Below are positions 5,765 to 30,246 of a stretch of DNA of 46,824 nucleotides, one piece after another. Where the stretch lies: the IMG/VR virus record IMGVR_UViG_2541047840_000001; one strand, 5' to 3'. Each line of letters opens with the position of its first letter. The stretch's first letter is position 1. The notes under the pieces are model-generated. The model saw only the letters and a list, made by a program, of their open reading frames with translations, made no database searches and was not told where the DNA came from. This DNA comes from a virus (Duplodnaviria > Heunggongvirae > Uroviricota > Caudoviricetes). A program made the position numbers and the translations under genes.

Positions 5765-6338
5765 TATCTTTAATGTTAGCTTGTTGGATGTTTTACCTCC
5801 TAACTTAGCTAGAGATCCGAACGTGATAGCTATGTCGAAAGCTATCGATGATGAACTACAAGCAATTAACAATTTAATATATAAGACAGAAATATATAGC
5901 GTTGTTGATAACCTGGACTCAGTTGTTCTCGATCATTTAGCTTGGCAATGGAATGCTGATACATGGAGGGATAGTTGGCCTGTATCGTTAAAGCGTTCTG
6001 TTTTTAAATCAATAATACGAACAAAGCGAATAAAGGGTACAAGGGCAGCGGTTGAAGATGTAGTAAATAGCTTGGGTGGAGAGGTAAACATAACAGAATG
6101 GTTTGAAACATCACCACCTGGCGAGCCATATACAGCCTCAATTGTTGCTTCGATTAACTCTTTTGATGGTGCCGTTCCTTCGAAAGAAATGTTGGAAGAT
6201 ACGTTAAGAAGTATCAAGAGCGCAAAGTCGGCAAGAACATTATTTACATTTTCGCAAGCAGCCAATGTTTCTGGTGGTGTCGGTATTGTTGGTGCTTGTC
6301 AGCCTGTGTCTTATGTACGATTAATTGGCGAGTGCTAA
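5757..6338 (+). CDS. Tail protein I-like (baseplate, fibre attachment)
   Basis: 193 aa, immediately upstream of tail fibre gene. Confidence 0.7.
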   Translation: MADIFNVSLLDVLPPNLARDPNVIAMSKAIDDELQAINNLIYKTEIYSVVDNLDSVVLDHLAWQWNADTWRDSWPVSLKRSVFKSIIRTKRIKGTRAAVEDVVNSLGGEVNITEWFETSPPGEPYTASIVASINSFDGAVPSKEMLEDTLRSIKSAKSARTLFTFSQAANVSGGVGIVGACQPVSYVRLIGEC

Positions 6339-6368
6339 TTCGCAATTTGTTAATTCAAGGAATTAAGC

Positions 6369-8723
6369 GTGAGTAAATTATTATTTACGATGACTGACGC
6401 CGGGCGTCAGGAGCTGGTTAATGCCAACAAAACAGGAACAAATAAAGTTGAGATTGTTTCTGTTGGTTTAGGTAGTAGATATTATGTCACGTCAACCTCA
6501 CAAACAAATATAACAAACGAAATAAAACGACTTACCACAATAGGTGGCAAAGTTGTTTCCCCTGATACAATTCATGTAACAGCGAAGGATGATAGTAAAG
6601 ATGAGTATGTTGTCCATACAATAGGATTGTATACGAATAAGGGGGCGTTGTTTGCTGTATACTCACAAGAACAAGCAATAATAAATAAAGCATCATCTAC
6701 TATCGCTTTAATATCAAGTGATATAGCAATTAAGACTCTTGATACTAAAAATATTACATTTGGTGATATTGAGTTTATTAATCCTCCCGCGACCGAAACT
6801 GTTGTTGGGGTGGCAAGATTTGCTAATGAACAAGAAATTGAGGCAGGTACAGATGATTCCCTTGCTGTTTCAGCAAAGCGGCTTAAGCAAGCCATTGTGA
6901 AACATGAGCAATCACGTAATCATCCTGATGCAACTTTAACCTCAAAAGGCTTTGTTCAACTTAGCAGCGCCACCAATAGCGCGTCTGAAACGCTTGCTGC
7001 GACGCCTAAGGCTGTTAAGGCAGCATATGACCTTGCTAACGCTAAATACACCGCACAGGACGCTACCACAGCGCGAAAAGGGATTGTTCAGCTCAGTAGT
7101 GCCACCAACAGCACGTCTGAAACGCTAGCAGCAACACCAAAGGCTGTTAAGGCAGCGTATGATCTTGCGGCCGGAAAGGCTCCGTCCAATCACACGCATT
7201 CGTGGGAGCAGATAACAAATGTGCCTGTAGCTTCACTGACTGTAAGGGGAATAACTCAGCTCAGTAGTGCCACTAACAGCACGTCTGAAACGCTGGCTGC
7301 GACACCAAAAGCTGTTAAGGCGGTAATGGATAAAACGAACAAGAAAGCGCCCTTAAACAGTCCTGCGCTGACCGGAACACCAACAACACCAACTGCGCCA
7401 AAAGGTACTAACAATACTCAGATCGCAAGCACGGCTTATGTTATGGCTGCGATCGCTGCCCTCGTGGACTCGTCGCCTGACGCACTAAATACGCTGAACG
7501 AGCTGGCTGCGGCGTTGGGCAACGACCCGAATTTTGCGACCACCATGACTAACGCGCTTGCGGGTAAGCAACCGAAAGATGCCACCCTGACGGCGCTGGC
7601 CGGGCTTGCTACTGCGGCAGACAGGTTTCCGTATTTTACGGGGAATGATGTCGCCAGCCTGGCAACTCTGACAAAAGTCGGGCGGGATATTCTTGCGAAA
7701 TCGACCGTTGCCGCCGTTATCGAATACCTCGGTTTACAGGAAACGGTAAATCAGGCTTCTGGCGCATTACAGAAAAACCAGAACGGCGCAGATATTCCTG
7801 ATAAAAGATTATTCCTGCGCAATATTGGAGCAACAAATTCAACAACCATGTCTTTTAATGGTGGTGTAGGATGGTTCAAACTGGCAACTGTAACAATGCC
7901 ACAAGCCAGTTCCGTGGTTTACATAAGCCTGATTGGTGGTGCAGGGTATAACGTTGGCTCCCCGCAGCAAGCAGGCATCTCTGAGCTGGTTCTGCGTGCC
8001 GGAAATGGAAATCCAAAGGGTATTACTGGTGCATTATGGCGACGGACCTCGGTTGGATTTACTAATTTTGCATGGGTGAATACATCCGGTGATACCTATG
8101 ACATTTATGTAGAAATAGGTAATTACGCCACGGGTGTTAATATCCAGTGGGATTATACAAAGGATGCCACTGTACAAATTCATACATCACCAACTTATAC
8201 AGCGAATAAACCGACAGGCCTGACAGATGGGACTGTATATGTAATTTACAGTTCGCACATAAAACCGACTGCTGCTGATGTTGGGGCGTTGTCATTATCT
8301 GGTGGTCAATTGAATGGTGCACTGGGTATCGGAACATCCAGTGCTCTTGGCGGTAACTCGATTGTTTTGGGTGATAATGACACGGGCTTTAAACAAAATG
8401 GCGACGGTAATCTGGACGTTTATGCTAATAACGTCCATGTTATGCGCTTTGTCTCCGGCAGCATTCAAAGTAATAAAACCATAAATATTACAGGGCGTGT
8501 TAACCCCTCGGATTACGGTAACTTTGATTCCCGTTATGTGAAAGATGTTCGCCTGGGTACGCGTGTTGTTCAATTGATGGCGCGTGGTGGTCGTTATGAA
8601 AAAGCCGGACACGCAATTACCGGATTAAGAATCATTGGTGAAGTAGATGGCGATGATGAAGCCATCTTCAGACCAATACAAAAATACATCAATGGCACAT
8701 GGTATAACGTCGCACAGGTGTAA
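6369..8723 (+). CDS. Tail fibre protein (constant N-terminal part plus invertible variable C-terminal part)
   Basis: 784 aa, GTG start; three tandem SSATNS-SETLAATPKAVKA fibre repeats; C-terminus ends PIQKYINGTWYN like the alternative fibre end on the minus strand; gix-like site inside the gene. Confidence 0.85.
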   Translation: MSKLLFTMTDAGRQELVNANKTGTNKVEIVSVGLGSRYYVTSTSQTNITNEIKRLTTIGGKVVSPDTIHVTAKDDSKDEYVVHTIGLYTNKGALFAVYSQEQAIINKASSTIALISSDIAIKTLDTKNITFGDIEFINPPATETVVGVARFANEQEIEAGTDDSLAVSAKRLKQAIVKHEQSRNHPDATLTSKGFVQLSSATNSASETLAATPKAVKAAYDLANAKYTAQDATTARKGIVQLSSATNSTSETLAATPKAVKAAYDLAAGKAPSNHTHSWEQITNVPVASLTVRGITQLSSATNSTSETLAATPKAVKAVMDKTNKKAPLNSPALTGTPTTPTAPKGTNNTQIASTAYVMAAIAALVDSSPDALNTLNELAAALGNDPNFATTMTNALAGKQPKDATLTALAGLATAADRFPYFTGNDVASLATLTKVGRDILAKSTVAAVIEYLGLQETVNQASGALQKNQNGADIPDKRLFLRNIGATNSTTMSFNGGVGWFKLATVTMPQASSVVYISLIGGAGYNVGSPQQAGISELVLRAGNGNPKGITGALWRRTSVGFTNFAWVNTSGDTYDIYVEIGNYATGVNIQWDYTKDATVQIHTSPTYTANKPTGLTDGTVYVIYSSHIKPTAADVGALSLSGGQLNGALGIGTSSALGGNSIVLGDNDTGFKQNGDGNLDVYANNVHVMRFVSGSIQSNKTINITGRVNPSDYGNFDSRYVKDVRLGTRVVQLMARGGRYEKAGHAITGLRIIGEVDGDDEAIFRPIQKYINGTWYNVAQV
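6948..7330 (+). repeat. Three in-frame tandem coding repeats (about 40 aa each) inside tail fibre gene
   Basis: Near-identical blocks GxxQLSSATNSxSETLAATPKAVKA repeated three times in the translation. Confidence 0.7.
7717..7742. other. gix/hix-like recombination site (left crossover site of invertible segment)
   Basis: TTATCGAATACC-TC-GGTTTACAGGAA; inner half-site is a perfect match to the Gin/Hin-type half-site TTCCTGTAAACC as recalled. Confidence 0.65.
7726..7798. repeat. 73-bp perfect inverted repeat, left copy (IRL) of invertible fibre segment
   Basis: 7726-7798 is the exact reverse complement of 10708-10780 (checked base by base). Confidence 0.85.
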
Positions 8724-16592: not shown

Positions 16593-16781
16593 ATGATGCG
16601 TAGAAAAGCGAGTTTGCTGCAAGCTATTGGGTCCATTATTTCTTTGTTTCCGGCAGTTGATCATTTTCGTCATATGGCGACACGTTCCAGTATGGGCTTG
16701 GCGTGTGACGCTGACGCTATTCGAAAGGATTTTCAGAAAGTCTCTGGCGTTGATAAGAGAGAAAAGAGTAAGGGGCCGTAG
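16593..16781 (+). CDS. Small hypothetical protein (about 62 aa)
   Basis: ATGATG start after GGTGGA; converges on antirepressor gene and shares a hairpin at 16770-16787. Confidence 0.3.
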   Translation: MMRRKASLLQAIGSIISLFPAVDHFRHMATRSSMGLACDADAIRKDFQKVSGVDKREKSKGP

Positions 16782-16791
16782 CCCCTTGTAG

Positions 16792-17973
16792 TTATGGTCT
16801 GCTTTTCTGTGCCAGCTTATCAGCACATGTTTTTATCAGATCCTGTAGTGTCTTGGCTGGCAGGTTTGCATCCAGTACGCTGAGTATGCTGTTGTGATCA
16901 GCTTGGTCGACTACTTTGCCTGTCGGTGGTAGTAGCTTGAGCTGAGGATTCAGGTTTTCGTCAAAGCTGATAAGTGCTCTGGCGTTTCTGAGCAGATCAA
17001 GAAGTAAGGCTGATATCACATTTTCCTGAGTCATTGCTGGCAGATTTAGCGCCGCTTTGGTTTTCCCTGTTGCCTTGTCAAACTCCTTGATTAGTTCCTT
17101 CCTGTAGTTCGGTTCCGTTAATAGCCGATTATGCTCTGTTGCCGCGCGGATAATCGTTTTTTCTTGGTACAGTCGTTTAGCCAGATCACGCTCGTACTGT
17201 GTTTTTAACACGCTGCTGATAGCGTTAAAGGCTTCAATGTAGGCCAGCTTGATATCTTTCACGCTTGGACCGTCGATGCTCTCCATGAGCAAGGTAAATC
17301 CGTCTTTTGTCATGCGATAGATTGTTATTTCGCGGTCGCTTCCTTCCAACGGTCGTTGCTCTTTAAAAAAATGACGCGCCGCAGCTGTGCGAGGAATGCG
17401 TAACGCATCGATGGCCATAACGATGGAATTGTTTGTGGTGCTGAATGCCTGGGCAACATCGGCTGAGGTTGTGAGTGGCTCGTTATTGCACACCTTAATG
17501 TAAAACATCGGTTTGGCGTTGAGCGTATCGACAACCTCACGAGCATTGCTTGGCGAGACGGTAACGGTCGCGGCCGTTTGTGCGTTCTGGTTGAAATAGC
17601 AGTCTTCCAGCCGTTCGAACACATCCCACGCTTGGTTAGTTTCAAGCATTTTAGCGTGACGTGCAGCCCCGCGTTCTGTCCAGAGGATGAGGGAGCGAAC
17701 TTTCGGGGGAATTTGTAACCCTCTTAAAGATGGTTCGTTAACTACTCTCACAGGAACTCTTAAAGAGTTTTTGTTCTTCAACTCTCGTAACTCTTTACCT
17801 TCTATCCTAAAAAAGTGTTTACCTTCTATAAAACGTTCCTTGTTTCTATTGAAATTGTTTGTCAGACGTTGGCGCTCGGTTCCATACAATTGCGCCAGTA
17901 GTTCAGTAGTGATAACGGGGAGCTGGTTATGCAGGATAGGCTGTAGGGTGTTAACGGTCGGAAGCGTTTTCAT
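16792..17973 (-). CDS. Phage antirepressor-like regulatory protein (ORF6N / Rha-like domains)
   Basis: 393 aa; N-terminal segment ending FIEGKHFF and a central Rha-like segment; calls are from recalled domain patterns. Confidence 0.65.
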   Translation of the reverse strand: MKTLPTVNTLQPILHNQLPVITTELLAQLYGTERQRLTNNFNRNKERFIEGKHFFRIEGKELRELKNKNSLRVPVRVVNEPSLRGLQIPPKVRSLILWTERGAARHAKMLETNQAWDVFERLEDCYFNQNAQTAATVTVSPSNAREVVDTLNAKPMFYIKVCNNEPLTTSADVAQAFSTTNNSIVMAIDALRIPRTAAARHFFKEQRPLEGSDREITIYRMTKDGFTLLMESIDGPSVKDIKLAYIEAFNAISSVLKTQYERDLAKRLYQEKTIIRAATEHNRLLTEPNYRKELIKEFDKATGKTKAALNLPAMTQENVISALLLDLLRNARALISFDENLNPQLKLLPPTGKVVDQADHNSILSVLDANLPAKTLQDLIKTCADKLAQKSRP

Positions 17974-18161
17974 TTTGCACCTCCCATAACTACTTTGGTT
18001 ACGAGGGAGATTTTTGCGTCAGAAACAGCGTTATCGTTGCTGGCGATGCGCATAGCTTCGCGCTCGATGATTTCAGCCAGGCGGAGTTTATCGGCGTATG
18101 AGGCTTTCTTGAGAAGGATCTTTACGAGGTTGACGTAATAGTCATGGGGTAAGTTTGTCAT
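17970..18161 (-). CDS. Small protein overlapping antirepressor start (icd-like position)
   Basis: 63 aa ORF whose stop overlaps the antirepressor start codon. Confidence 0.4.
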   Translation of the reverse strand: MTNLPHDYYVNLVKILLKKASYADKLRLAEIIEREAMRIASNDNAVSDAKISLVTKVVMGGAK

Positions 18162-18917
18162 GGTGATAGTTCCCTTAAAGGTTAAGGATACTCACCACCG
18201 TCTGGTTCCAATCATTGGGTGGTGAGACGTACAGGGTTGGAACTACCGGTCACCATGGAATCCGGCGAGTCTTACGACTCCCCCGCACGCCCCACCATAA
18301 TTTGGGTGTAGCAGTGCTTTACGCATAAAAAAACCGCTAACGCGGTATGCGCCATGATGATTATCGGGGTTCCAATCCCGGTCGTAGATTTTGCTACGGC
18401 TCGGAAAGTGTCCACCAATGGCGCATTCATGTCAATACGGCGGGATTTTAACAGAGACAACCACATAGCGTGGGTTTATTGGTAGGCAGAAACAAAAAAA
18501 CCGCCCTATTGAGGACGGTTCTTTCGTGCTGATCGGATTCGCGGTCCTTTCAGCATTACGTTGTTGTATAAACAACCACGCAAGCACAAGCAGCAAGTTA
18601 ATTTTACCCAAAAGGTAATAATAGTCCACTATTATGCTTCATAAAATTGTGGTTCTTGTTGTGCCTGCAAACTCACAGATTGTGGGTAGGTTACTGATTT
18701 TGTGAAAATAAACTGGTTTTTTCGTTTAATTTATTTCCTATTACTAATCTTAAAATAATCGTAAAATACCTGTGGACCTTCCCGCCGATTCGCACCCGGG
18801 CACCGACTTTAGGGGAGGATTTCCTGTTGCCGTACATGCAAGCACAAGCAGCCGTGCTTGCTCTCGCGTTGTTTTCGTCGGTGGGGATGCCGTGAAACGG
18901 CCTGTAAGGGCCATACA

Positions 18918-19040
18918 ATGAAAAAATACTGTATGTGTATTTTTATCGTTGTTACTGGGGCTTTGTTTACGCCACATGGGGAGGGTTGGAAGATTACTGA
19001 TAACGCTCTGAATGTGACGATAAACATTAGCAGCAAGTAG
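18918..19040 (+). CDS. Candidate small hydrophobic peptide (40 aa)
   Basis: ATG 18918 with AAGG RBS inside a short hairpin; translation MKKYCMCIFIVVTGALFTPHGEGWKITDNALNVTINISSK; strong terminator immediately downstream. Confidence 0.3.
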   Translation: MKKYCMCIFIVVTGALFTPHGEGWKITDNALNVTINISSK

Positions 19041-19045
19041 CGATT

Positions 19046-19068
19046 AGGCCCCTTCGGGGGCCTTTTTT
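19046..19068 (+). terminator. Rho-independent terminator
   Basis: AGGCCCC-TTCG-GGGGCCT followed by TTTTTT. Confidence 0.65.
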
Positions 19069-20853: not shown

Positions 20854-21510
20854 TCATAACCAGTTGACAACACTAACTACGCGGCCCAGAACTTTATAAC
20901 GCTTAAATTCCTCGTTATTCAGATGCTTAGTGTTCATTTCAGCATCCCTTTCGGTTGACAGCATAACAGCATTGTCACCCGGTATGACTCTACAGTGCCT
21001 CAAAACAACCAGGCCATTTCTGTCTTCAAGGGCATAGATCCCCTCATGAATCTCTGTATCGTCTGTATCAATCAGGACTTGGGAGCCAGGGGATATTGTT
21101 GGTGACATTAACTCATCGTTGCTCTGGAGAACTGACAGAGACGATGGGTTGATGTTCTTGCTTCGTAGAATCTCCTGTTCTATCGCCAGCACTGGCTTTT
21201 CTCCGGCGTGCGATGCTATGTCATTTTTTATAGCTACAAGCCCAGGAATAACAGGAGCGTTAGTATTCTGGGGTGGGAACGGGTTATCTGTTAAGCACGC
21301 GATATAAGGCGCTGATGCTTTCAGGGCGTGCGCGATTTTCTTGATGGCAGGTATAGATGGTTGTCTTAATCCGGCCTCATAGTTCTGCAAGGTGCTTAAG
21401 CCTATTCCAGTGACTTGCTGGAGATCTCCGGCAGTCATGCCGGATTGTTTCCGTAGAGTCTGAATGCGCAGACCTATTTCTTTCTTGATGTTCTCGTCGT
21501 TGCTTTTCAT
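20854..21510 (-). CDS. CI-like prophage repressor (N-terminal HTH, C-terminal S24/LexA-like peptidase)
   Basis: 218 aa; N-terminal HTH-like segment; C-terminal half consistent with an S24 autoproteolytic domain; divergent from a Cro-like gene. Confidence 0.8.
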   Translation of the reverse strand: MKSNDENIKKEIGLRIQTLRKQSGMTAGDLQQVTGIGLSTLQNYEAGLRQPSIPAIKKIAHALKASAPYIACLTDNPFPPQNTNAPVIPGLVAIKNDIASHAGEKPVLAIEQEILRSKNINPSSLSVLQSNDELMSPTISPGSQVLIDTDDTEIHEGIYALEDRNGLVVLRHCRVIPGDNAVMLSTERDAEMNTKHLNNEEFKRYKVLGRVVSVVNWL

Positions 21511-30170: not shown

Positions 30171-30246
30171 GGCCCCTTAGCTCAGTGGTTAGAGCAGGCG
30201 ACTCATAATCGCACGGTCATCGGTTCAAATCCGGTAGGGGCCACCA
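30171..30246 (+). tRNA. tRNA with CAU anticodon (closest to tRNA-Ile2 type; tRNA-Met not excluded)
   Basis: 7-bp acceptor stem GGCCCCT/AGGGGCC, anticodon loop CTCATAA, T-loop GGTTCAAATCC, 3' CCA encoded; 5' half matches E. coli ileX as recalled from memory. Confidence 0.8.

Follow-up and report, generated by a model that had tools for sequence, protein, structure and literature searches.

The immI locus of the plasmid prophages P1 and P7 comprises c4, the site pairs a1/b1 and a2/b2, icd, which encodes a cell-division inhibitor, and ant1/ant2; in P1, the primary repressor C1 controls its promoter through the operator Op51. The C4 RNA of P1 is reportedly freed from the transcript, with RNase P generating its 5' end, and Rho-dependent polarity acts in the same locus. 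In P22, sar is an opposite-strand transcript that overlaps the ribosome-binding site of ant. Within the C4 family, a1/b1 may compete with a2/b2 for C4 (Weinberg 2010); the site names used here follow Additional file 1 of that work. The isrK-orf45-anrP-isrJ operon of Gifsy-1 is driven by the isrK promoter, antirepressor translation increases over 100-fold when IsrK is supplied in trans, and a1:a' pairing has been demonstrated there by the compensatory mutants G28A/C162U and G31A/C159U (PMC4825925). The same study regards IsrK as a structural homologue of SeqA of the P4 immunity system and likens STnc1160 to the P4 CI RNA (PMC4825925).

Our analysis identifies an unannotated additional member of this already known kind of system in the window, i.e., the whole 46,824-nucleotide stretch of viral DNA analysed (IMG/VR record IMGVR_UViG_2541047840_000001). 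The locus leaves the picture of how such loci work unchanged. Its description as a P1-type antirepressor operon under a C4-type antisense RNA, apparently cut from the operon's own leader, is essentially right. On the minus strand, a single probable promoter is followed by an IsrK-type RNA, the C4 RNA, two target sites, a 63-codon ORF and the antirepressor gene (Table 1). The host element is a roughly 48-kb temperate E. coli phage-plasmid.

Table 1. Features of the antirepressor operon and its flanks, in window positions; RNA sites are given as RNA sequence.
Feature	Position	Strand	Description
Upstream intrinsic terminator	18494..18520	-	Hairpin and U-run, from sequence and fold
Operon promoter (probable)	18406..18434	-	-35 TTGACA 18434-18429, 17-bp spacer, -10 GACACT 18411-18406
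IsrK-type small RNA, a1b1 decoy element (putative)	18327..18400	-	Two hairpins, linker, own predicted intrinsic terminator
a1 (UUGGAAC)	18369..18375	-	Loop of IsrK-type hairpin 2; 7-bp Watson-Crick match to C4 a'
b1 (UCAUCAUGG)	18352..18360	-	Directly 3' of hairpin 2; 9 bp, one G-U, with C4 b' loop
IsrK-type RNA terminator (putative)	Stem 18346-18333, 7-U run to 18327	-	Terminator-like site in scan and sequence
C4-type antisense RNA	18215..18302	-	Closing helix P1, hairpin P2, hairpin P3 with b' loop
b' (CCAUGGUGA)	18250..18258	-	Loop of C4 hairpin P3; complementary to b1 and b2
a' (GUUCCAA)	18237..18243	-	Single-stranded joint from P3 to P1 3' arm; complementary to a1 and a2
Alternative hairpin	18191..18226	-	CUCACCACC (18226-18218) with GGUGGUGAG (18199-18191); a2 in 18-nt loop; -13.7 kcal/mol
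a2 (UUGGAAC)	18205..18211	-	4 nt past C4 match; complementary to a'
b2 (GGAACUAUCACCAUG)	18159..18173	-	Just past Shine-Dalgarno through AUG of 63-codon ORF
63-codon leader ORF, icd position	17970..18161	-	Stop overlaps antirepressor start (AUGA)
Antirepressor-type protein, 393 aa	16792..17973	-	ORF6N and Phage_pRha; GGAGG Shine-Dalgarno within leader ORF end
Terminator-like hairpin, operon end	16770..16787	-	Terminator scan

Antisense-RNA control of the P1 c4 type had been proposed in a first-pass annotation, with a covariance-model scan set beforehand as its test. In the scan, the Rfam C4 model (RF01695; gathering score 45) scored 84.3 bits at 18302-18215(-), over model positions 1-87 of 87, and the isrK model (RF01394; gathering score 50) scored 65.1 bits. 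Together with an ORF6N/Phage_pRha protein encoded after an overlapping small ORF, these matches bear the proposal out and place the two RNAs in the C4 and isrK families. At the isrK position, the c4-a1b1 model (RF03163) scored 30.3 bits against a gathering score of 46.7 (E = 1.7e-5), which leaves the element outside that family. The isrK-C4 tandem precedes the antirepressor gene in Gifsy-1, in the sister phage vB_YpM_39 and in each of 10 non-P1 loci examined from reference phages, whereas in P1 and D6 c4-a1b1 stands where other loci have isrK.

The C4 fold is conserved. Across a 20-locus alignment, 98.5% of its pair cells are paired and 11 of the 27 pairs show both-sided changes, a covariation score reached by none of 500 shuffles; slid controls were 36-49% paired. 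The P2 loop of the window is the GNRA tetraloop GUAA. Nearly all C4 loci keep the 5' flank and arm AAUUAUGGUGGGG and a 3' ...CACCACC, which is compatible with excision as a stable trans-acting RNA of about 77 nt, without proving it.

Both a' and b' are exposed and complementary to downstream sites, one of them over a ribosome-binding site, an arrangement characteristic of the C4 family. The repeat GGTTCCAATC, noticed at first reading, indeed has two copies (18204-18213 and 18368-18377), and these are the a1/a2 target pair; chance expectation in the 46.8-kb window is 0.08 copies, and a count of 2 was reached in 1 of 100 shuffles. The alternative pairing with TTGGAAC reported alongside it (GTTCCAA/TTGGAAC, at 18205-18211 and 18237-18243) is that of a2 with C4 a'. 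Two further complementarities had escaped that reading, CATGGTGA/TCACCATG at 18159-18166 and 18250-18257, and TAGTTCC/GGAACTA at 18167-18173 and 18239-18245. The duplex of b2 with b' and the adjoining UAGUUCC comprises 8 + 7 bp separated by a 4-nt bulge, with a predicted energy of -21.7 kcal/mol. The leader as a whole folds more stably than 200 of 200 shuffles (z = -4.8). The a'-a2 duplex has only 7 bp, a point that counts against the model proposed below.

These complementarities covary. In 13 distinct phage loci, cognate duplexes were 5-8 kcal/mol better than noncognate ones for all four site classes, and for each class none of 20000 permutations was as good. Cognate and noncognate values were -11.9 vs -4.3 kcal/mol for b1-b' and -9.4 vs -4.7 kcal/mol for a2-a', and the cognate target of b2 ranked first in 13 of the 13 loci. 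Among near-identical phage-plasmids, three a and three b alleles occur in reshuffled combinations, with all three copies always changing together, a pattern that heteroimmunity of the P1/P7 type predicts. Immunity specificity would reside in the short a and b sequences, and sister elements with other alleles would be predicted to escape the present C4.

Transcription of the operon probably starts near 18400, as read from the sequence. In every related locus, Gifsy-1 included, an ATTGAC-type -35 and a -10 precede the 5' end of the IsrK-type RNA by the same spacing. The operon promoter was not listed by a simple promoter scan because its -10 is weak, and inspection by eye revealed neither a LexA box nor an obvious operator in it. 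No net gain emerged when mature C4 was cofolded with the mRNA or IsrK in RNAcofold, since contacts between the loops of two folded RNAs resemble pseudoknots, which its model does not cover; duplex energies of the exposed segments were taken in its place. Predicted energies in the window are -33.0 kcal/mol for C4 with the putative decoy vs -23.9 kcal/mol for C4 with the target, and the means over 14 loci are -37.1 vs -31.4 kcal/mol.

The 9-bp perfect stem singled out at first reading exists, with plus-strand arms CTCACCACC (18191-18199) and GGTGGTGAG (18218-18226) placed 18 nt apart; it had been given as 18192-18200 and 18221-18229, and the small motifs were likewise 1-3 nt off. As a free-standing leader hairpin it does not hold, since one of its arms doubles as the 3' arm of the closing helix of C4. 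In the alternative hairpin, this arm pairs with the conserved downstream GGUGGUGA, and the hairpin and the folded closing helix cannot coexist. The hairpin was found in 17 of 20 C4 loci; in P1 and D6, by eye, it is kept via two-sided changes in three pairs. Its role is left unaccounted for by the proposed model. A candidate cis pairing of GGUGGUGAG with the b2/AUG region was rejected: it occurs only with the b allele of the window, is absent in sister alleles and other phages, and folds no better than shuffled sequences (z = -1.2).

A 63-aa ORF does overlap the antirepressor start, as first described. The shared AUGA (17973-17970), with GGAGG upstream, makes a junction of the P1 immI type and suggests translational coupling of the leader ORF to the antirepressor gene. 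The likeness to icd before ant in P1 extends to position and not to sequence. BLASTP did not align the 63-aa ORF with P1 Icd, nor the 393-aa protein with D6 Ant in any meaningful way, and orthology was rejected in both cases; functions are therefore assigned by domain and position only. The 63-aa ORF matches PHROG 7886, a family without assigned function, over its full length (E = 8e-47), and no family was found for it in Pfam or NCBIfam. Its 13 homologues in viral contigs (64-100% identity) all have a C4-class RNA directly upstream. The 393-aa protein matches Pfam PF10543 (1.3e-21) and PF09669 (1.6e-12) and anti-repressor families of PHROG, with E down to 2.7e-60. The primary repressor of the element is a lambda-CI-like HTH protein with a weak S24-like domain (20854-21510).

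These features are best explained, and in our judgment very probably, by a secondary immunity operon of the P1 immI/Gifsy-1 isrK/P4 CI type. The minus strand would be transcribed from about 18400 by the single promoter, most transcripts probably ending at 18346-18327 to give a roughly 74-nt IsrK-type RNA with a1 and b1. Read-through transcripts would contain C4, which by analogy with P1 may be excised, with RNase P acting at the 5' end, and accumulate. Its a' and b' would pair in trans with a2 and b2 of read-through transcripts. Pairing of C4 with b2 would block leader ORF translation because b2 extends from just past the Shine-Dalgarno sequence through the AUG, and since the antirepressor start overlaps the leader stop, antirepressor synthesis would drop as well, owing to the loss of translational coupling and probably also to Rho-dependent polarity. 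The IsrK-type RNA would be a decoy, since it carries the same two sites closer together and has the stronger predicted pairing with C4, and the balance of decoy and C4 would decide antirepressor output. The antirepressor would inactivate the CI-like repressor and lead to lytic growth.

We extend this model tentatively, giving the extension slightly less than an even chance. The IsrK-type RNA may represent the long-sought function of P1 a1/b1, as a separately terminated decoy titrating C4, such that a single promoter would yield repressor, anti-repressor RNA and target, with read-through setting the switch point. Gifsy-1 'orf45' might then be C4 itself, and the conserved hairpin, by borrowing the C4 3' arm, might commit each read-through transcript to one of two fates, a repressor or a target with a2 on display.

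When the entire leader (nt 1-271) is folded without processing, the MFE structure has a1/b1 paired in cis with a'/b' and the ribosome-binding site buried in a local hairpin, which leaves room for control that acts in cis in part or in full, as the published IsrK model has it. A purely cis leader as published for Gifsy-1 IsrK, silent in its full-length fold, opened by the IsrK-type RNA in trans and lacking a free C4 repressor, nevertheless seems unlikely to us. It has in its favor that this fold hides the leader start and is the counterpart of 'structure A' (PMC4825925), that the isrK model scores above gathering, and that the conserved alternative hairpin suggests a C4 closing helix not always meant to form. 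However, the published mechanism requires translation of 'orf45' from an AUG in the C4 5' arm, and in the window this frame closes after 8 codons; elsewhere, it varies between 8 codons and a frame fused to the downstream gene. The three-helix C4 fold is kept by compensatory changes, which a segment serving purely as an anti-RBS would not require, and the stable processed STnc1160 of Salmonella maps at the C4 position.

The first-pass annotation had also likened the locus to P22 sar; in a system of that type, a short plus-strand countertranscript would overlap the antirepressor ribosome-binding region. Apart from that analogy, such an RNA could claim a plus-strand terminator-like site at 18363-18382, but this 'terminator' is the reverse complement of isrK hairpin 2. 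Both covariance-model matches lie on the minus strand only, the scan gave no plus-strand RNA family match, and the sole plus-strand promoter-like site found by the promoter scan, at 18892-18919, falls outside 16792-18525, within which the scan listed none. Here the regulator matches its targets through short, separate stretches of same-strand complementarity rather than by full overlap, and it comes from the target's own strand and a common promoter. The sar analogy thus fails, and we consider a countertranscript of this type improbable in the extreme. Scarcely more credible is that the repeats and stems are chance features or decayed, functionless remnants, as the weak -10 hexamer (GACACT) and the split or partial annotation of the antirepressor gene in some sister plasmids might suggest: every part is intact in the window, the leader and antirepressor ORFs are both open, GGTTCCAATC occurs far more often than expected by chance, and the sites covary between loci and between near-identical plasmids.

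Upstream of the operon, the minus-strand terminator first reported at 18494-18520 is present as a hairpin with a U-run and would insulate the locus, although a simple terminator scan did not list it. It probably does not belong to the operon, being most likely the 3' end of a neighboring TimR/RyfB-like antitoxin RNA that starts near 18594. Minus-strand RNA at 18594-18577 is complementary to ryfA positions 18835-18852 in 17 of 18 nt, and timP/ryfA is repressed by TimR, an RNA encoded divergently from it (PMC7667032).

The analysis identifies a likely secondary immunity/induction switch of the element and two RNA genes absent from the public annotations of roughly 60 sister plasmids and three Yersinia phages. 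The natural allele series, with its three a and three b specificities, offers a convenient test of RNA-based heteroimmunity and of the decoy role proposed for a1/b1. Furthermore, when mapped onto the sequence, the compensatory Gifsy-1 mutants fall exactly within a1 (UUGGCGU) and a' (ACGCCAA), which joins the P1 c4 and Salmonella IsrK literatures, kept separate in a 2025 review.

Among the described systems, P22 immI shares with the window an antirepressor gene under RNA control and differs in that the regulator is here a same-strand, same-promoter RNA pairing via two short segments. P4 immunity (CI RNA; seqA, seqB and seqC), compared by description, shares a small RNA that is processed, in the window putatively, from the leader of the operon under its control, with one complementary site upstream and one downstream; it acts by premature transcription termination before replication genes, not by a translational block of an antirepressor operon. 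In Gifsy-1, isrK and its terminator likewise come before a C4-family RNA reached by read-through and an antirepressor gene (PMC4825925), the promoter distance is the same, and the cis 'structure A' is also predicted for the window. In Gifsy-1, however, the antirepressor gene directly follows b2 and 'orf45' runs through C4, whereas the corresponding frame of the window has only 8 codons and a separate, conserved 63-codon ORF comes after b2 and before the antirepressor gene. Gifsy-1 also carries another a allele, isrJ downstream and antQ upstream, neither of these two genes being in the window.

With P1/P7 immI, the locus shares the one-strand order, b2 over the ribosome-binding site of the small ORF, an RNA of the same family by covariance model and the principle that specificity lies in short sequences varying from one heteroimmune relative to another; both loci are carried by plasmid prophages. 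It differs in that its leader ORF shows no detectable similarity to Icd, its antirepressor combines ORF6N and Rha domains, unlike the D6 Ant compared, its upstream element scores above threshold as isrK and below it as c4-a1b1, and its repressor is lambda-CI-like rather than P1 C1. This locus would work like immI with proteins that are not orthologues of the immI proteins.

An Rfam covariance-model scan, the check proposed by the first-pass annotation, was decisive for the leader of the antirepressor-type gene. It returned a full-length match to the C4 antisense RNA (84.3 bits against a gathering score of 45) and a match to isrK (65.1 bits against 50). At relaxed thresholds, the isrK position is additionally hit by RF03163, 'a1, b1 targets of C4 antisense RNA' (30.3 bits, E = 1.7e-5), so that the IsrK-type RNA represents the a1b1 element of this locus. 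A GC hairpin and then seven U form its 3' end, and the predicted promoter upstream of it (TTGACA-17 bp-GACACT) occupies the promoter position of every related locus. A perfect 9-bp inverted repeat, ATGCGCCAT/ATGGCGCAT (18347-18355 and 18418-18426), is present only in the window's plasmid family; of its arms, one is situated within the spacer of the promoter, before the presumed start, and the second overlaps b1, within the IsrK-type RNA.

Features of the immunity locus and its surroundings, with pairing sites named according to Weinberg et al. 2010
Feature	Position	Strand	Remarks
Antirepressor-type ORF, 393 aa	16792-17973	minus	ORF6N and Phage_pRha domains; many PHROG anti-repressor family matches
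63-codon leader ORF	17970-18161	minus	directly ahead of antirepressor gene
b2 GGAACUAUCACCAUG	18173-18159	minus	ends with AUG of 63-codon ORF
a2 UUGGAAC	18211-18205	minus	4 nt past C4
C4 antisense RNA	18302-18215	minus	RF01695
a' GUUCCAA	18243-18237	minus	single-stranded joint of C4
b' CCAUGGUGA	18258-18250	minus	loop of third C4 helix
isrK	18400-18327	minus	RF01394
b1 UCAUCAUGG	18360-18352	minus	directly 3' of second isrK hairpin
a1 UUGGAAC	18375-18369	minus	loop of second isrK hairpin
Putative TimR/RyfB-like antitoxin RNA	18494-18600	minus	divergent from ryfA/timP; 3' end at 18520-18494 terminator
ryfA/timP-type toxin RNA gene	18772-19068	plus	Rfam RF00126, 143 bits
CI-like repressor, HTH_3	20854-21510	minus	C-terminal Peptidase_S24 match sub-threshold (20.0 vs Pfam cut-off 23.3 bits)

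The sequence features listed in the first-pass annotation are all present, 1-3 nt from the positions it had assigned; its observation is confirmed, and its interpretation as an immI-like antirepressor locus under antisense-RNA control is supported. The decamer GGTTCCAATC occurs exactly twice (18204-18213 and 18368-18377; 0.08 expected) and corresponds to the a1 and a2 sites. The alternative pairing, GTTCCAA/TTGGAAC (18205-18211 and 18237-18243), is that of a2 with a'. The a' segment is complementary to a1 and a2 over 7 bp each, and b' to b1 over 9 bp. Together with the adjoining UAGUUCC, b' forms 15 bp with b2 around a 4-nt bulge (predicted -21.7 kcal/mol).

Leader counterparts with 70-80% identity occur in more than 160 phage records. 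The tandem of isrK and C4 precedes an antirepressor-type gene in the 10 non-P1 reference loci that were fetched (Stx phages, phiP27, phiV10, mEp460, cdtI, APSE-2, and a Klebsiella phage), in the sister phage vB_YpM_39, and in Gifsy-1; phages P1 and D6 have, ahead of C4, an element that scores as c4-a1b1. Across a 20-locus alignment, 98.5% of the pair cells of the C4 fold are paired and 11 of 27 pairs have changed on both sides; no shuffle was as good, and slid registers reached 36-49% paired. The a sequences vary by phage (UUGGAAC, UUGAGAC, UUGGCGU, UUGCUAC, GUGGAAA, UUGACCU, UUCGAAC, UCGCAG, UUAGCAG, UUGACAG), as do the b sequences, and within each locus a1/a'/a2 match, as do b1/b'/b2. Cognate versus non-cognate duplex energies were -9.4 and -4.4 kcal/mol for a'-a1, -9.4 and -4.7 for a'-a2, -11.9 and -4.3 for b'-b1, and -12.7 and -7.2 for b'-b2, with none of 20,000 permutations equaling the cognate value in any of the four classes. 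Near-identical phage-plasmids carry three a alleles (GGAAC, GGCGU, AGCCU) and three b alleles (CACCAUG, CAUCAUG, CACAAUG) in differing combinations, each changed jointly in decoy, C4, and target, and b2 always ends in AUG. Reshuffled alleles of this sort would be expected if heteroimmunity were RNA-based, as in P1/P7.

The 9-bp stem proposed from the sequence is a perfect inverted repeat (arms at 18191-18199 and 18218-18226). The 5' arm of the stem, CUCACCACC, also forms the end of the C4 closing helix's 3' arm, and its own 3' arm, GGUGGUGAG, is located past a2; hence, a2 lies within the 18-nt loop, and hairpin and folded C4 are mutually exclusive. The same alternative hairpin is found in 17 of the 20 C4 loci. 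In phages P1 and D6, compared by eye, the C4 arm is CCUGCCACC and the downstream arm GGUCGCAGG, so that three hairpin pairs have changed on both sides, and two loci of the Xcc1 type differ compensatorily (ACCACU/AGUGGU versus ACCAUC/GAUGGU). From these comparisons, we consider the hairpin to have been selected. Transcripts with an unfolded C4 part may use it to display a2, or it may couple C4 folding to read-through. A predicted terminator is sometimes overlapped by the 3' half of helix P1 (Weinberg et al. 2010); a U-run follows the hairpin in cdtI, phiP27, and EH1910 and is absent in the window (UAUCCUUAACCU).

A P1 immI mechanism with an IsrK-type decoy is the best-supported reading and would comprise C4 processing, trans action, polarity, promoter regulation, and an antirepressor target, steps that we infer here. 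In Gifsy-1, termination yields IsrK and read-through yields the mRNA, and IsrK supplied in trans enhances translation of the antirepressor by a factor of more than 100 and leads to prophage induction; the authors of that study likened IsrK to P4 SeqA and processed STnc1160 to P4 CI (PMC4825925). When the published coordinates are placed on the sequence, G28 and G31 fall within a1 and C159 and C162 within a'. The compensatory mutants G28A/C162U and G31A/C159U thus demonstrate a1:a' pairing in the homologue. The Gifsy-1 region concerned (NC_010392, 34316-34074 (-)) has a C4-family RNA at 34214-34131 (69 bits). Predicted binding to the C4 core is tighter for the decoy than for the target, at -33.0 versus -23.9 kcal/mol in the window (means over 14 loci, -37.1 versus -31.4). 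A contribution in cis by the unprocessed leader is possible, since in the predicted fold of the full leader a1/b1 pair with a'/b' and the start codon is hidden. Of the two antisense-RNA systems invoked by the first-pass annotation, P1 c4 is borne out by the C4 family match, and a P22 sar-type system is rejected because the window has no sign of a countertranscript.

On the same placement, Gifsy-1 'orf45' starts at an AUG (A107) inside the C4 5' arm. This frame closes after 8 codons in the window and is erratic in length in other phages, so translation through C4 cannot serve as the coupling device here; that role would be taken by the conserved 63-codon ORF beginning at b2. The sequence comparison suggests that the 'orf45' region is an RNA gene, not a protein gene. 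Annotated CDSs span isrK and C4 in mEp460 ('transcriptional regulator'), cdtI ('putative antirepressor'), phiP27, and EH1910 (both 'hypothetical protein'). In these four phages, the frame that begins in the 5' arm of C4 continues without a stop into the antirepressor gene, and the CDS starts are probably over-extended.

Inspection of the window found no credible ORF in the ~340 nt upstream of the 63-codon ORF, whose stop shares AUGA with the antirepressor start, with GGAGG closely upstream. A C4-class RNA immediately precedes the homologue of the 63-aa ORF in all 13 viral contigs that encode one, scoring as sRNA-Xcc1 in two. In these two (L026, 1379-1464; L027, 1376-1460), the RNA matches RF02221, not C4, and has its own matching a2-/b2-like sites covering the Shine-Dalgarno sequence; here the protein module is thus paired with another RNA of the C4-like class. 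The host element is a ~48-kb circular E. coli phage-plasmid with RepA, ParA, a RelE/HigB-type toxin pair, tail genes, a CI-like repressor, and a tRNA gene called tRNA-Met (30171-30246 (+), anticodon CAU). Its sister plasmids in PLSDB number ~60, and identity over the locus to three Yersinia pestis phages (vB_YpM_39, 41, and 44) is 95-97%. The RefSeq annotation of the one sister plasmid checked has no RNA feature in the locus interval. Several sister plasmids, NZ_CP023368.1 (1968-3110) among them, have the antirepressor annotated in two pieces, a partial ORF6N pseudogene and a distinct Rha-family gene; in part of the family, the central stretch of the gene varies or is disrupted. The likely antirepressor target is the CI-like HTH protein. 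Given its sub-threshold S24 match and a usual catalytic lysine position that, by eye, is not conserved, this repressor may not self-cleave, and induction may hinge on the antirepressor.

The minus-strand terminator said to insulate the locus is real (hairpin and U-run, 18520-18494(-)). A promoter-like site at 18628-18601(-) would start a ~100-nt RNA, of which segment 18594-18577 is complementary at 17 of 18 nt to ryfA/timP 18835-18852. TimR, an RNA that represses timP, has been reported in the same arrangement (PMC7667032). The terminator is accordingly most plausibly the end of a TimR/RyfB-like antitoxin RNA, and it would still protect the immunity promoter from transcription arriving upstream. 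ryfA/timP and the divergent RNA look like a type I toxin-antitoxin pair on a phage-plasmid, which is not annotated in the one sister plasmid checked. Some sister elements have, in place of the terminator-bearing sequence, a ~660-bp insertion with a 540-bp gene closely upstream of the immunity promoter (vB_YpM_39, 5874-6413 (+); L016, upstream region). Sister plasmids annotate a helix-turn-helix gene there, which might regulate the immunity promoter.

The likeness to P1 immI lies in the way of working, with RNAs of the C4 and isrK families, whereas at the protein level the locus is not an immI orthologue. The proposed resemblance to icd and ant holds for position; protein comparison rejected the leader ORF as an orthologue of P1 Icd and the antirepressor as one of D6 Ant. 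Earlier work describes c4 and isrK occurring together ahead of an antirepressor in APSE phages, and also sRNA-Xcc1 ahead of an ORF6N protein. Though unannotated, the locus is an ordinary representative of a known class, and its main value lies in a natural series of a/b alleles and in the bridge that it provides between the literature on P1 c4 and that on Salmonella IsrK.
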